This document shows positions 7,181 through 59,602 of a stretch of 64,000 nucleotides of DNA, piece after piece. The first letter of the stretch is position 1, and the number at the start of each line of letters is the position of its first letter. Position numbers and translations under genes: made by a program. The notes beneath the pieces were generated by a model. That model was not told the origin of the DNA. It was given only the letters and a program-made list of their open reading frames with translations, and did not search any database. Source of the DNA: Octopus vulgaris (Eukaryota); NCBI GenBank assembly GCA_951406725.2, contig OX597828.1:61442001-61506000 (forward strand). Reading direction: 5' to 3'.

Positions 7181-7270
7181 CTCTTACGGCTGTTTCAGGG
7201 GTACAGTAATCCATAGATTTTAAGGGTATTTTCACTCCAAAAATTGGATACTGCCTCCTTCATCAGAGAG
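7181..7270 (-). ncRNA. Type I hammerhead ribozyme, intact core
   Basis: Minus strand: ctct-CTGATGA-aggaggcagtatcc...ggattactgtacccct-GAAAC-agcc-GTA-agag; stem I ctct/agag, long stem II, minimal stem III. Confidence 0.75.
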
Positions 7271-7692
7271 TATATTATTCAGGATTTCACATTTCGTGCG
7301 ACTTTGTACTGGGTAGATGAGATTTAGTTATATAAGGAGGTACAGTTGTAAACAGGAAGAGGAAATATTATAACAAGGATCTATGAGAAATACGATGTAA
7401 CAATGTGTGTGTGAGTGCGCATGTGATGTTATATGTGTGTGCATATCTGTCTGTCTGTCTGTCTGTCTATCTGTCTATCTATCTATCTATGTATGTATCT
7501 ATCTATCTATCTACCTATCTATCTATCTATCTATCTATCTGTCTATATATCTATCTATATGTAGATATCTATATGTATGTATATATAAATACATATATAT
7601 ATATATATATAGGTAGATAGATAGATATCAATATATATATACTATTGCTATATATTGTGTGTATATATATATATATATATATATATATATTG

Positions 7693-8106
7693 TATAGAGG
7701 GTACTATTATTCATAGGTACCGCACGCTAGGAGGGACTCATGCAGTCAAAACTACTAAAATAAACAAATTATACCGAATGCAAAACTTCAAAGCAAGTAA
7801 TTTAAAAACAGAATTTAGTTACATATCACCTGTGATTTCGCAATCAATGCAGAATATGCATTCTATGCTCTTCAGTGCAACGAACTCAAGACATGTAAGG
7901 ACAAGTGTCTTGAGTTCGTTGCACTGAAGAGCATAGAATGAATATTCTGCATTGATTGCGAAATCACAGGTGATATGTAACTAAATTCTGTTTTTAAATG
8001 ACTTGCTTTGAAGTTTTGCATTCGGTACAATTTGTTTATTTTAGTAGTTTTGACTGCAAGAGTCCCTCCTAGCGTGCGGTACCTATGAATAATAGTACCC
8101 TCTATA
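7693..8106. mobile_element. Near-perfect ~410 bp palindrome (foldback MITE)
   Basis: ~200 bp arms tatagagggtactattattcataggtaccgc... / ...gcggtacctatgaataatagtaccctctata, few mismatches, ~12 nt loop near 7900, TA at both ends. Confidence 0.85.
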
Positions 8107-8276
8107 TAATATAAATAAATATTTTCAAAGTGGAAAAATTTACAGATTTTTTCTCTTACGAGGTTTTTCACGCTAACTACTGATAATTTCTTATAAAGAT
8201 TTTATCCTTAATTTTAAATATATATATATATATATATATATATATATATATATATATATATATATATATATATATA

Positions 8277-9475
8277 CAGTGGGGGGAAATAAATATTCTT
8301 TTTCGTTTGTTCCAATAATCTTATCAGTTGTCATTTTTAAGTGTCAAAACGCTAGCTTCTTCATTCAGCACTGAGACAACATAAAGTAGTATCGTAATAA
8401 TGGCGAAAAGTAAAGAACTCACAAATTCAGTAAAAATCTTAATTATTGAACAGTGGAAAACGTAAAAGTTACAGGAAAATATCAGAGACCCTTTGTATTC
8501 CATTTTCTACCATTTCTTCATTTATTCAAACATATAAAAAATTGGGAACTGTTGAAAACAGAATAAGATCCGGTGCACCACGCAAGATTTCCCTTAGATC
8601 TTTAAGATAAATGAAGCAAGGAATCGAAAAAAAAAACGCAATGATCACCAGAAAAGAGTTGCAAGAAGATTTGTTAGCTTCAGGGATTAGTGTTACTCTA
8701 CGAACAATCATCAATGAACTTCATAGGAATGAACTGAAGTCACGCTCTCCTAGAAAAACTCCGCTGTTGACTAAAAGGCATAGAGATGCCCATTTAAAAT
8801 TTGTTTATGAACATAAAGATAAATCTGATACATTCTGGGAAAATGCTCTATGGACAGACGAGTCGAAAATTGAATTGTTTGAGCGAAATTCGCGTAGCCA
8901 TGTTTGGAGGAAAGATGGTACCGCCTATTCGCCGAAAAACACAATTCCTACCATGAAGTTTGGAGATGGCAACATCATGGTGTGGGGGTGTTTCTCTGCA
9001 AATGGTACTGGCAATTTACATGTGATAGATGGTAGAATGAATGCAGAGATGAGCCAAAATATTTTGAACAATAATTTATGGGACTCTGTAGAAAAGCTCC
9101 AGCTTTGTGAAGGGTGGGTTTTACAACAGGATAACGACCCTAAGCACACGGCGAAGTCTACCAAAAAATGGATTGTCGATTACAATATAAAATTATTAGA
9201 ATGGCCAAGCCAGTCACCTGACTTGAACCCCATTGAAAATTTGTGGCGTAATTTGAAAATTAAAATTCATTCAAGAGCCCCAACGTGCATTACAGATTTG
9301 AAGAAAATTTGTCAAGAAGAATGGGAAAAAATTCCTAAAGAAATATGCGAGTCATTGATTAATAACTACAAGAAGAGATTGGTTGAAGTGGAACTGAATA
9401 ATGGTTATGCTACGAAGTATTAAATCAGAATTATCAGTTATTTATGTTCTGTGCGAATACTTTTTTCACCCCTAA
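8277..9475 (+). mobile_element. Tc1-family DNA transposon
   Basis: TA|cagtggggggaaataaatatt 5' end at a (TA)n tract; related inverted motif gaatacttttttcacccct at ~9455-9473; outer 3' TIR not found, SINE fragment follows at ~9500. Confidence 0.85.
8400..9423 (+). pseudogene. Tc1 transposase (DD34E); N-terminus disrupted, catalytic domain open at 8611-9423
   Basis: WTDESKIELF, QQDNDPKH, SPDLNPIENLW with 34 residues between the second D and E; paired-like HTH and GAPRK motif upstream, broken by one frameshift (~8460) and a TAA at 8608. Confidence 0.92.
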
Positions 9476-9897
9476 ACATTTATAATTGAATATAAATTCC
9501 TTCTTTCCCTTGGATAACACTGGTGGCGTGGAGAGAGGAGGCTGGTATGCATGGGCGATTAATTAAAATTTACATTTCCAGTGGTCCAGCGTGTAAAAAT
9601 TTAGTCCAAAAGACTATATTTTAGTCATAAGATACAGTGTACATTTAAACACATGAGGAATCCACTTATGGGATTCAACACGCTATAAAGAACAGCTAGG
9701 TTCTATAACCACAAAAATTAGGGATAAAATTCGACAGGAACGAAATGAAAAATAAAAACAGTTTACCATCTAGTTTCCTGGACCAATTGGTTTCTTATTT
9801 TAGTATATGAATAACATATACACTCGCCAGGTGAAATCGTCGTCAGCAGGAACACCTAGAGTTAAACGTATAAAACACGAGGCGATCAATCTACGTT

Positions 9898-10319
9898 TAT
9901 ACATCCTAACTTTTTCAAAATCTACTGCGCAGCCGCAGCCCTTCGCCAGCAATAAAAAATTTCCAACTTTTAAAAACCCAAAATTATCCAAAAACTCGCC
10001 TCGTATATATGTGTGTGTGTATCTATCTATCTATCTATCTATCTATCTAACTATATATATGTGTATATATATATATATATATATATATATATATATATAT
10101 ATATATATATATATATATATATATATATACACATATATATAGTCGATTATATATATATATATATATATATACATATATATAGTTAGATAGAGAGATACAC
10201 ACATACATATATACGAGGCGAGTTTTGGGATAATTTTGGGTTTTTAAAAGTTGGAATTTTTTTATTGCTGGCGAAGGGCTGCGGCTGGACAGTAGATTTT
10301 GAAAAAGTTAGGATGTATA
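9898..10319. repeat. ~108 bp inverted repeat flanking a (TA)/(TCTA) microsatellite
   Basis: 9898-10005 is the reverse complement of 10212-10319 with a few substitutions; inner ends read TA-CGAGG (mariner-like terminus). Confidence 0.8.
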
Positions 10320-57645: not shown

Positions 57646-57754
57646 CTACATATATGTATATGTATATATCTATATCTATATCTATCTATCTATCTATCTA
57701 TCTATCTATCTATCTATCTATCTATCTATCTATCTATCTATCTATCTAAATATA

Positions 57755-58498
57755 TTTCGTCTTCTAATTGTTTTGCGTTCTTGTCCCAGTTTGTGTTTTT
57801 TTACATTTACCTATTATATGGCGGCGCCCGTAACCCCTTTTGATATTGTATGTAAAATACATTTTCTCTCTAATACATGGTACGACTCAATAACACTGTC
57901 TCTCTCTCTCCCCCTCTCCTACATTTCTCTGCCTTTCACACTGTGCACTCCACGTTTACCCGTCTCTTTCTCTCTTCCTCTGTCCCGCTTTTCTCCCCCC
58001 TCTTCTCACACGTGACTAACTTTGGACTGCTGTCCTGCCTTTTCGTGATCAACGGCCGTATAGGCTAGACACATTTTTTCTCTCTTCGCCTTCAGGCATT
58101 TTTTCAATGCGCCAGCTGAAGTTCACCCGTCCTGTCGAAAAGACGCCTGTCTGTAACGTCCTGTTTTTGTTATTATTATTATCATTATTGTTTTTACGTA
58201 TTTTCGTATTCTTATTCGTGTTATCATTATTCATTTTACGTATTTTTGTATTCTTATTCGTTCCCGTCCTTGTTTTGTATACATTCGAGGCTTTCTTCCA
58301 AGGAATCTAATGCGCTTGGCATAGATTTTCCTTTGGGGCTGGCCAGATCGGAGCAATCTCAAGATTAATCAGCCGAAATTGCGAAGATGATCCGGTTCTT
58401 GACTGAAGATCGAAGGCTTCGAATGTCCCGTCCGTTTTTTTGTATCGTCTTCAAAATGTTTTGCGTTCTTGTACCAGTTTGTGTTTCTTTACATTTAC
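57755..58498. mobile_element. ~740 bp non-coding element with ~55 bp terminal direct repeats
   Basis: tcgtcttc-aa-tgttttgcgttcttgt-ccagtttgtgttt-tttacatttac at ~57757-57810 and ~58445-58498; flanked by microsatellites. Confidence 0.6.
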
Positions 58499-58539
58499 TT
58501 ATATATATATATATATATATATATATATATATATATGGA

Positions 58540-59320
58540 TAAATTAAGAAAAGGAGTTAAATGCGGGTGTTATTCAAATCAATTAGACTTCCAACATATC
58601 TTTCGAAAACATCATTGAGATTATTCCGGAGGGAATAACAATGATGTAAACCAATGTAATCATCTCGCCAGAGAAACAGGAACAAAACACATCAATAAGC
58701 CATTTTAACTGAATGTGATTACCGCGTACATAAGAATATGATGTTACTTTTTTAAGCGTTATTTAAAAAAAACCTTTCATAGATTTAACGTCAAAGGTAA
58801 ATTAGAGAAAGAGAAGGAGGAGAAAGAAAGAAATGAACTGAAAATTAAGAGTGGAAAAATATAGTGTGATAGATGAATGGAAATAAAGTTTAAAAGCGTG
58901 GAAATAGATATATGTAGTGGAATGAAATGTAAGAAGATAGTTGAAGGTCAAATTTTATAGATTGGTGGAAATTACTTATAGGAACTACAAATATTGTAGT
59001 TCCTATAGGAACTACAAATATTTTTGACAACGTTTACAACAATAAACGCGTTCTTTAAACGTGTTTTCAAGAGTATTCTTCGAGAAAAGGCTGACAAGTA
59101 GCTCTTCGTTACAGAGCGGACAAAAATATTTACCTTTGTCATATGGGAAAGATCAAGATAGAATTTTCCATTCCAAACCGTATTGTTTATTATGTTCCTT
59201 TTGAGACCAAATTAATTAACTAAGCCCAGTATTGTTGTGTTTCTTAATATGTCTAACATGTAGAATAATGGTCAGATATTCTTTTCGACAACTGAGGGGA
59301 ATATATATGTATTTTCGTAT
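58540..59320 (-). mobile_element. Penelope-like element 3' end with decayed hammerhead (58589-58675)
   Basis: TGLS*LIWSQKEHNKQYGLEWKIL...PYDKGKYFCPLCNEE (PLE endonuclease C-terminus); ttct-CTGGCGA-...-GAAAG-atat-GTT-ggaa; (TA)n on both sides. Confidence 0.7.
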
Positions 59321-59535
59321 ATATATATATATATATATATATATATATATATATATGTGTGTGTGTGTGTGTGTGTGTGTGTGTGTGTGTGTGTGTGTGT
59401 ATGTATGTGTGTATGTATATATATATATATATATATATATATATATATATATATATATATGAGTGAATGGATAAACGAAAGAAGGGCAGTCAATACATGT
59501 ATTAGGATTTACAAATATATATCAAAACAGTTTGA

Positions 59536-59602
59536 TTCAAATTCATTTTATACTCCGTGAGTTTCAAGCGTGATGTTAATCTTCAGCCATTTTGAATTTG
59601 AA
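59536..59602 (-). ncRNA. Decayed hammerhead motif, probably in an inverted 5' pseudo-LTR
   Basis: Minus strand CTGAAGA...GAAAC-tcacgga-GTA; distal stem ttcaaattca/tgaatttgaa; proximal stem I and stem II pair poorly. Confidence 0.4.

Follow-up and report, generated by a model that had tools for sequence, protein, structure and literature searches.

Long-stem-II hammerhead motifs in the octopus genome probably mark the 3' ends of truncated Penelope-like elements

A 64-kb stretch of the Octopus vulgaris genome (the window, meaning the whole 64,000 nucleotides analysed) is strewn with hammerhead ribozyme motifs, which raises the question of what carries them. We consider it highly probable that the motifs come from Penelope-like elements (PLEs) that lack their 5' part and retain the 3' end with its hammerhead, elements of the Hydra clade in four traced families and likely non-autonomous 450–490-nt derivatives in two, most of them with a lineage-specific long stem II of conserved pairing; this account extends to how reverse transcription would start, how cleavage would depend on a dimer or a protein, and what stem II would do. 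A strict type-I hammerhead descriptor (CUGAnGA, stem II of at least 3 bp, GAAA, an A15.1–U16.1 plus a 15.2–16.2 pair, NUH, and stem I of at least 3 bp) matched the window seven times, far above 100 block-wise dinucleotide shuffles (mean 0.04, maximum 1), and the reversed window sequence gave no strict match. A lenient scan without the stem II requirement returned 13 window matches against a shuffle mean of 0.23; one lenient match, with its core at 6471, resembles chance.

The window holds 16 motifs (Table 1), 12 of them with the full CUGAnGA, GAAA and NUH core in type-I order; those with cores at 19634, 39196, 39183 and 58671 have one or two core changes. Three helices close the junction, with compensatory changes as computed with relatedness ignored. 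The first-pass annotation had listed about 12 hammerhead motifs, and all 12 sites are hammerhead-derived: five intact, three near-intact and four with core or stem-I defects. Five of the eight sites it called intact satisfy the strict descriptor (7181, 28467, 38233, 51340 and 54227), and the remaining three (50863, 27678 and 56666) keep the full core with a flawed helix; its variant or decayed sites (19548, 39185, 58589 and 59536) are those with core or stem-I defects. The list was not complete, as it overlooked four motifs, three at 7818, 7918 and 9775 and one on the other arm of the 39185 palindrome, and what was taken for a single dispersed family is many families.

Table 1. Hammerhead motifs and the insertions that carry them in the 64-kb window
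Positions	Strand	Feature	Strict descriptor
7181–7270	−	Type-I hammerhead with a 63-nt stem II, at the end of a copy from an old Hydra-clade PLE family	Pass
7818–7881	−	Type-I hammerhead, stem II 29 nt, short-tail arm (+133) of head-to-head insertion 7677–8122	Pass
7918–7981	+	7875 family, long-tail arm (+242) of insertion 7677–8122	Pass
9775–9852	−	Complete core; stem I of 6 bp, stem II of 45 nt disrupted at its base; stem III a palindrome	
19546–19640	−	Decayed motif, stem II 64 nt, G5C; stops at (TA)n, 38 nt beyond the cut site	
27678–27761	−	Hydra-type family; complete core; stem II of 56 nt whose base has U.U and one further mismatch	
28467–28557	−	Intact motif with a 60-nt stem II; Hydra-clade family, very young; stops at (TA)n (+37)	Pass
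38199–38670	−	3' portion of a Hydra-clade PLE lacking its 5' part, bordered on both sides by (TA)n	
38233–38318	−	Intact hammerhead with a 59-nt stem II, a tail of +37 and a stem III (ACGAUCGU) that is palindromic throughout	Pass
39040–39272	Both arms	Head-to-head two-armed insertion, longer tail on the minus arm	
39190–39252	+	Plus-arm hammerhead: U4C, 6-bp stem I, 31-nt stem II	
50863–50947	+	Complete core; stem II of 60 nt with A.A mismatched at its base; stem III a palindrome	
51340–51400	−	Intact motif, stem II 27 nt, family of 448–514-nt non-coding tandem units	Pass
54227–54323	−	Stem II 72 nt, weak 3-bp stem I	Pass
56667–56759	+	Stem II 70 nt, full core, U.U at stem II base	
58588–58676	−	Decayed motif, stem II 60 nt, A6G and C15.2G	
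59547–59590	−	Decayed, short and Hydra-like, with a 14-nt stem II and a disrupted stem I	

Relatives of the 7181 motif share 75–91% identity, and the family of the 28467 motif (28551) occurs at 42 other places with ~100% identity over 264–265 nt among scored candidates. The decayed 19546 motif has intact relatives in L053 and L295, and relatives of the 27678 motif keep a ~10-bp stem where the window copy has U.U plus a mismatch. Some departures from the consensus belong to the family: U4C of the 39185 motif is common to relatives in L154, L070 and L107, and stem I of the 56667 motif is only 2 bp family-wide, its U.U at the stem II base also occurring in published Hydra hammerheads. The 58588 motif aligns with 14 relatives (alignment A2), the 59547 motif has relatives in L206, and motifs similar by eye to that at 9775 lie in L221 and L248. 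First-look candidates in the genome number 1,906 for the 38314 family (38233 motif), 2,398 for the 51394 family (51340 motif), 1,757 for the 56669 family (56667 motif) and 2,124 for the 7875 family (7818 motif); the genome-wide searches covered families other than those of 50866, 9846, 39196, 58671, 59586 and 19634. An inverted tail piece lies near the 51340 motif, at about 51490–51540.

Four families (38314, 28551, 7266 and 27757) have Hydra-type endonuclease/reverse transcriptase (EN/RT) coding sequence upstream in other copies, which bears out the earlier view that the motifs sit at the ends of PLEs, frequently next to (TA)n. In the 38314 family, RT and EN occur in L022 and L132 with DKT, CxCx5C, CxxC and CxH, and L132 runs from ADKT through RT to a C-terminal GIY-YIG EN; the RT-EN order recurs in L202, L203 and L135. 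The EN frame lies 1.5 kb upstream of the motif in the 28551 family (L128, L131, L202 and L203) and ~250–320 nt upstream in the 7266 family of the 7181 motif (L037, L039, L044 and L047), and weak Hydra EN tblastn matches lie 270–350 nt upstream in the 27757 family of the 27678 motif (L205, L211 and L214). The CxCx5C linker, with CxxC and CxH around the EN end, is present in families 38314, 28551 and 7266, and in 27757 by weak tblastn only; likeness to the published Hydra alignment was judged by eye on 5'-truncated copies. The copies also show (TA)n insertion, a one-ended tail and inverted or tandem arms, as in Hydra-clade PLEs.

Other copies carry less of their parent. No parent frame was found upstream for the 54320 and 56669 families, nor a Hydra-type frame in any of 20 long-stem matches taken with 2.5 kb upstream; families without a frame are putative PLEs judged by the motif, with (TA)n borders or inverted arms as further signs in some. 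A search for a full junction of 5' pseudo-LTR (pLTR) and ORF found none, L132 being truncated inside RT, and no full element with 5' pLTR, ORF and 3' pLTR occurs among the copies examined. A search for longer proteins homologous to the EN domain found nothing. Neptune-like frames upstream of motifs in L295 and L162 were set aside as parents, being single cases and probably neighbours. The traced families have a C-terminal EN, unlike the N-terminal EN of the Naiad PLE. In the two octopus Naiad 3' ends read (Naiad_Obim and Naiad_Ovul), the idea that the Naiad 'half-core' is a long-stem-II hammerhead was unsupported; read by eye, GAAA precedes CUGAUGA in the published Naiad_Ovul end. The two motifs of L194, separated by 5.9 kb, fall within a local duplication that lacks a PLE frame. 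The 38314 family is present in four presumed-RNA contig sets, whose contigs do not show ends, strand or editing and therefore speak neither for nor against expression.

Hydra-clade PLEs with canonical hammerheads are known, including Hydra-1_Obim of Octopus bimaculoides (Craig et al. 2021, PMC8557442). The octopus families share with them the C-terminal GIY-YIG, DKT, the CxCx5C linker, CxxC/CxH, the (TA)n target, a type-I hammerhead near the 3' end, a short palindromic stem III, the one-ended tail and inverted 5'-truncated arms. They differ in their Asn-rich linkers, in 3' UTRs of up to 1.5 kb, in an extra tail of ~90–120 nt rather than 30–40 nt, in copies numbering tens of thousands, and in the dominance of a 45–72-nt stem II, whereas the listed Hydra stem II loops are at most 10 nt; stem II of Hydra-1_Obim is ~22 nt in all. 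Like the minimal hammerheads (min-HHRs) of Cervera and De la Pena (2014, PMC4209133), the motifs are type I and sit in pseudo-LTRs, with a short stem I, a palindromic stem III that implies dimer action, many families per genome and thousands of dispersed single copies. That the motifs are 'minimal' PLE hammerheads no longer holds, since most have a 45–72-nt stem II (10 of the 16 in the window) and a palindromic stem III. The pairing of hammerheads with PLEs is already known; what is different here is the long stem II.

Standard searches miss most of these motifs because stem II is two to three times the usual length. Stem II measures 27–72 nt in 15 of the 16 window motifs and all 16 carry a stem III insert, so the published min-HHR descriptor (stem II of 3–7 bp, loop of 3–10 nt, no stem III insert; PMC4209133) cannot match them. 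The Rfam hammerhead models at gathering score matched neither the window nor eight further loci, as expected from the long stem II, and of the 201 window matches by E-value, the 150 listed included no hammerhead family. The E-value search mainly gave microsatellite-driven miRNA models, and the output of a repeat finder on the whole window was dominated by microsatellites. A long-stem-II pattern matched the genome 39,826 times compared with 1,419 in the control, suggesting about 38,000 copies and agreeing with the first-pass view of a very large ribozyme-bearing system. The largest min-HHR counts are ~2,000–9,000 per genome (PMC4209133), and the 126,247 motifs of the axolotl (PMC7229834; bioRxiv 10.64898/2026.07.22.740005) mean that the octopus copy number is not a record. 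The estimate of one motif per 5 kb proved local, because a fixed-position 1-Mb genome sample held 25 strict motifs (~1 per 40 kb; control 0.6 per Mb); the window is ~4-fold denser (Poisson P ~0.001).

Pairing emerged where the search had not asked for it. In 20 long-pattern matches, stem I of at least 3 bp formed in 15, whereas pairing between different hits reached it in 7%; the palindromic inner pairs of stem III averaged 1.6 of 2 in these matches, and stem II folding had a mean z of −2.1. Compensatory changes affect 4 of 4 stem I pairs and 2 of 6 distal-hairpin pairs among 17 sequences, and 6 of 11 stem II pairs among 15, with controls uncorrected for relatedness and structures derived from the very alignments scored; two covariation measures were not above shuffle. 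The stem pairs first cited as covariation come from unrelated families and are not strict covariation, and it is among homologous subfamilies that compensatory changes appear. In monomer folds, the stem III pair probability was at most 0.06 in 10 of 10 motifs and stem I was weakly populated (P 0.00–0.65); self-duplexes reach −1.7 to −11.2 kcal/mol.

The long stem II may instead be a tolerated expansion, an AT-rich peripheral hairpin that is paired only to avoid misfolding the ribozyme or tail and has no role of its own, a possibility we take seriously and place somewhat short of even. Across the genome, stem II comes in dozens of sequence types of 12 to 80 nt; its length is labile among related families (27-, 49- and 61-nt forms), so the extension is not indispensable. 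No stem II sequence is common to all clusters, GC is 33% as in the window, and Hydra elements of other hosts manage with 10–30 nt (0 of 46 stem IIs exceed 30 nt). Watson-Crick pairing of stem II loops with the flanks, the form of loop I/loop II contact examined, was not above control in 24 motifs, and a pseudoknot or kissing contact with 60 nt upstream or the 36-nt tail was rejected on that basis (own mean 3.9 nt; cross-family 3.95 and 3.8). Mere tolerance fits less well with the convergence of many unrelated clusters on 49–72 nt, with long forms outnumbering short ones ~2.3 to 1 (~70% of the class), and with the compensatory changes in the distal hairpin.

Copies stop at two fixed sites past the cut site, ~+37 or +136/+155, and both 3'-end classes occur in 5 of 5 families tested. 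Among 24 head-to-head pairs, 21 were resolvable, and all 21 combine a short with a long tail. This pattern agrees with the two RT start sites and the one-ended tail described in PMC11167929 and PMC8557442. Anole Poseidon PAc (Frangieh et al. 2024, PMC11167929) likewise ends at two discrete sites 3' of the hammerhead, inserts at AT-rich targets and leaves copies that include sequence past the cut site; it differs in clade, in its short stem II and in start sites only a tail-length (30–40 nt) apart, and its two start sites are biochemically shown, whereas those of octopus are inferred. By analogy with the anole Poseidon work, the element RT-endonuclease would nick (TA)n DNA, reverse transcription would begin inside RNA still uncut at the ribozyme, at ~+37 or +136/+155, and it would usually stop early, leaving fragments. 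Self-cleavage after NUH is predicted from the motifs' sequence. The ribozyme is predicted to be nearly silent alone, to cut only as a dimer via the palindromic stem III or with an element protein, and to trim a multimeric precursor. The long stem II would most likely act as a stable hairpin, steadying the junction and presenting a surface to which protein can bind, a role that is a guess.

Two of the families resemble retrozymes, as the first-pass annotation had suggested. The 7875 and 51394 families look like non-coding tandem units of ~450–490 nt (487 nt without a long frame in the former). These two families, L324 and L325 have non-coding head-to-tail units each with a hammerhead, some repeats carrying a defective motif. 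It is improbable that most motifs are classic non-LTR retrozymes, whose non-coding tandem units cut themselves into monomers that close into RNA circles, the templates for new copies. Such a circle would also account for copies running past the cut site, and head-to-tail units of 448–561 nt without a frame above 125 aa, each with a type-I hammerhead, occur in five loci, one of them an array of identical 534-nt units bearing a long stem II. However, four families lie downstream of Hydra ORFs, truncated single copies or inverted pairs, with PLE tails and (TA)n borders, make up the majority, and the units exceed the 170–400 nt of non-LTR retrozymes (PMC7229834). Non-LTR retrozymes have been proposed as non-autonomous PLE derivatives (PMC7229834; bioRxiv 10.64898/2026.07.22.740005), and the retrozyme reading probably holds for a subset only, as non-autonomous PLEs. 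Chance matches in AT-rich repeat DNA have a negligible claim, since the background of the loose pattern (1,419 control matches) and the one seemingly random lenient match are set against the shuffle, per-Mb and genome controls and the unrequested pairing of the stems, which refute them.

Because the basic association was known, truncated PLE 3' ends with long-stem hammerheads extend rather than overturn the picture. Still, the ~38,000 estimated motifs, which escape both Rfam at gathering score (window and eight loci) and the published minimal descriptor, point to a blind spot. The octopus genome offers a natural high-copy variant series with dozens of sequence types, a family of very recent origin and 3' ends mapped exactly at two sites, which makes testable the need of the ribozyme for a dimer or protein, the function of stem II and the origin of two-armed insertions. 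A bolder possibility, for which we hold out little hope, is that the fold is mainly an RNA-dimerisation and protein-loading module, in which the stem III palindrome would pair two RNAs, the long stem II would dock a dimeric RT-endonuclease, and of the two DNA ends one would be primed at the short site and the other at the long site. Such a module would account for the combination of a short with a long tail in every head-to-head insertion observed. It would also mean that short-stem descriptors have led, in some lineages, to PLE hammerhead counts and claims of absence that greatly underestimate the true number.

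Hammerhead motifs are far above background in the window, which spans 61442001–61506000 of its contig in an assembly of 2.8 Gb, is 34% GC and is rich in microsatellites. The strict type-I descriptor matched seven times vs a mean of 0.04 in 100 shuffles, the relaxed scored descriptor (score ≥8) eight times vs 0.15, and a descriptor without a stem II requirement 13 times vs 0.23; Rfam at gathering score returned no hammerhead matches in the window. All 12 sites proposed in the first-pass annotation proved hammerhead-derived (five strict, three with a full core and one weak helix, and four with core or stem I defects), and four further motifs bring the total to 16. 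Changes at G5 or A6 abolish or cripple hammerhead cleavage. Stem II measures 45–72 nt in 10 of the 16 motifs, 27–31 nt in five and 14 nt in one.

The long-stem-II form is abundant across the genome. One hundred 10-kb stretches, taken at round-number positions on 28 contigs, held 25 strict motifs vs a shuffle mean of 0.6, including 13 with a stem II of at least 40 nt (shuffle mean 0.4). This density, ~1 per 40 kb, gives roughly 70,000 strict motifs in all (45,000–103,000), which bears out the very large ribozyme-bearing system suggested earlier; the accompanying figure of roughly one motif per 5 kb holds locally in the window, ~4-fold enriched relative to the sample, but not elsewhere. A whole-genome pattern search demanding no base pairing found 39,826 matches with a 45–75-nt spacer (control 1,419) vs 18,316 with a 10–40-nt spacer (control 1,524). 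Thus, the long form makes up ~70% of the class having the searched stem III shape, and neither count takes in families whose stem III has another length, 7875 and 51394 among them (families are numbered after their window motifs). A true minimal hammerhead family (stem II 12–13 nt, stem III ACGU) is also abundant, at loci L081, L091, L102, L128, L237, L292 and L308 outside the window, so minimal and long forms coexist in this genome.

Twenty long-pattern matches, three of them related, were chosen by eye for sequence diversity from the first 100 listed. Stem I reached at least 3 bp in 15 of the 20 vs 7% for mismatched partners, stem III was near-palindromic, and the computed fold of stem II was an imperfect rod, with z averaging −2.1 and lying below −1 in 14. 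Seventeen homologous motifs aligned with MAFFT showed both-sided changes in 4/4 pairs of stem I, 2/4 of proximal stem II and 2/6 of the distal hairpin. Uncorrected for relatedness, cells with both-sided changes numbered 39 vs 14.5 shuffled in this group and 23 vs 11.3 in a second group of 15 motifs, where 6/11 stem II pairs had such changes. Set against these figures, neither group exceeded shuffle for further pair types, the pair count of the 15-motif group did not either (79/500), and the middle of stem II kept no single register.

Genome searches with eight window motifs revealed large dispersed families, with 72 to 2,398 first-look candidates, which are not copy numbers. Copies show variable 5' truncation and fixed 3' ends, mostly inside (TA)n. 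Walking upstream of the family 38314 motif through other copies recovered a reverse transcriptase–endonuclease (RT-EN) frame with DKT, CxCx5C, CxxC and CxH, the Hydra-clade marks in the available text of PMC8557442. Families 28551 and 7266 have these same EN motifs, and family 27757 has weak Hydra EN matches only. Judged by these sequence motifs, the hammerheads of three to four families lie in termini of Hydra-clade Penelope-like elements (PLEs), and the system in general would work like such a terminus. The first-pass placement at PLE termini stands for these families; no parent ORF was found upstream of families 54320 and 56669 in the copies examined, nor a Hydra-type ORF within 2.5 kb upstream of 20 further long-stem-II matches. 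Family 28551 is very young, as its scored copies are ~100% identical; at L131 and L202 an inverted arm is fused to an ORF-bearing arm. Among named database entries, those nearest to an element protein of this genome come from Octopus sinensis (58%, 76% and 88% identity), in keeping with an octopus host. Hydra ORFs at L022, L132, L131 and L202 join RT and EN by long Asn-rich or (AAT)n linkers, which stay in frame in several copies; databases label related sequences as host proteins of low complexity. Families 7875 and 51394 look non-autonomous and retrozyme-like, since they form head-to-tail units (487 nt and 448–514 nt) with no frame >125 aa. Other elements are collected in the table. The published Naiad_Obim and Naiad_Ovul 3' ends share a conserved three-way-junction-like stretch in which GAAA precedes CUGAUGA; it is not a type-I hammerhead and is possibly another structured RNA.

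Other elements in the window and elsewhere in the genome (L numbers, loci outside the window)
Feature	Position	Strand	Observation
Tc1-like transposase	window 8611–9423	+	Pfam DDE_3, HTH_Tnp_Tc3_2
211-bp inverted repeat	window 9898–10319		Built round a (TATC)n/(TA)n core, immediately upstream of the 9775–9852 (−) motif
Non-LTR RT remnant	window 23758–25473	+	RVT_1, zf-RVT
Non-LTR RT remnant	window 30721–32572	+	RVT_1, zf-RVT
Head-to-head element	window 39040–39272; L154, L070, L107		Arms begin directly at hammerhead stem I; U4C core change family-wide
Decayed PLE, Neptune-like on our reading of its motifs	window 40260–42430	+	RT then GIY-YIG, many frameshifts; no hammerhead found 3'
Relative of the Neptune-like PLE	L138:2027–4310, just left of window		Largely open
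Presumed hAT-like remnant	window 44376–45272	−	No Pfam support
Hydra-type RT remnant	window 48195–48785	−	Joined to none of the listed hammerheads
Hydra-type RT remnant	window 61242–61732	+	Joined to none of the listed hammerheads
Presumed Helitron-like remnant	window 51993–52376	−	No Pfam support
Good candidate for an active retrozyme-like array	L324:1515–3394		Three 534-nt non-coding units, 100% identical, with long-stem-II hammerhead

The 3' ends of copies do not lie at the predicted hammerhead cut site. Tail lengths, taken from the cut site to the first (TA)4, fall into two classes in each of five families measured: +37/+136 in 38314, +37/+155 in 28551, +37/+137 in the family of L080, about +130/+244 in 7875 and about +133/+221 in 51394. 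As copies run past the cut site to two tail classes, the reverse-transcription template would be RNA uncut at this ribozyme, or circular. For an anole PLE, the available text of PMC11167929 shows that RT starts at two internal sites, that the RNA copied is mainly unprocessed, that the protein is predicted to dimerise and that the hammerhead does not cut unless the protein is present. Head-to-head insertions (24 found) combined one short and one long tail in all 21 resolvable cases, with off-size long arms (113 and 171) in two family 38314 pairs; all 12 pairs of family 28551 did so, roughly 7e-5 under independent choice. This pairing fits the published PLE 'tail at one end'; priming of the first vs the second strand may be all that lies behind it. 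In monomer folding, stem III pair probability was ≤0.06 in 10/10 motifs, and most stem III palindromes formed stable self-duplexes, computed properties resembling the dimer-dependent hammerheads in the available text of PMC4209133.

The long stem II sets these motifs apart from described relatives. Among 77 metagenome loci encoding Hydra-like RTs, 48 carried a strict motif, and none of their 46 distinct stem IIs reached 40 nt (range 10–30 nt); the remaining 29 yielded nothing, near-matches of short form or, in three cases, a longer loose match that appears coding or unpaired. Loops in the Hydra table of PMC8557442, octopus Hydra-1_Obim included, are ≤10 nt, in contrast to the long octopus stem II, and the core search of Craig et al. 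in the same source used a 7–17-nt spacer. The minimal-hammerhead descriptor in the available text of PMC4209133 limits stem II to near 26 nt, and the octopus motifs fall outside the minimal definition. The tandem units of families 7875 and 51394 likewise lie outside the 170–400 nt given for retrozymes in the available text of PMC7229834. A search of mainly freely accessible papers found no description of the long-stem-II form; a PLE origin of animal retrozymes has already been argued in the available text of a preprint (10.64898/2026.07.22.740005). What is new is the absence of long stem II from other sampled Hydra elements, the strict pairing of short and long tails, and the dominance and scale of long stem II in the Octopus vulgaris genome.
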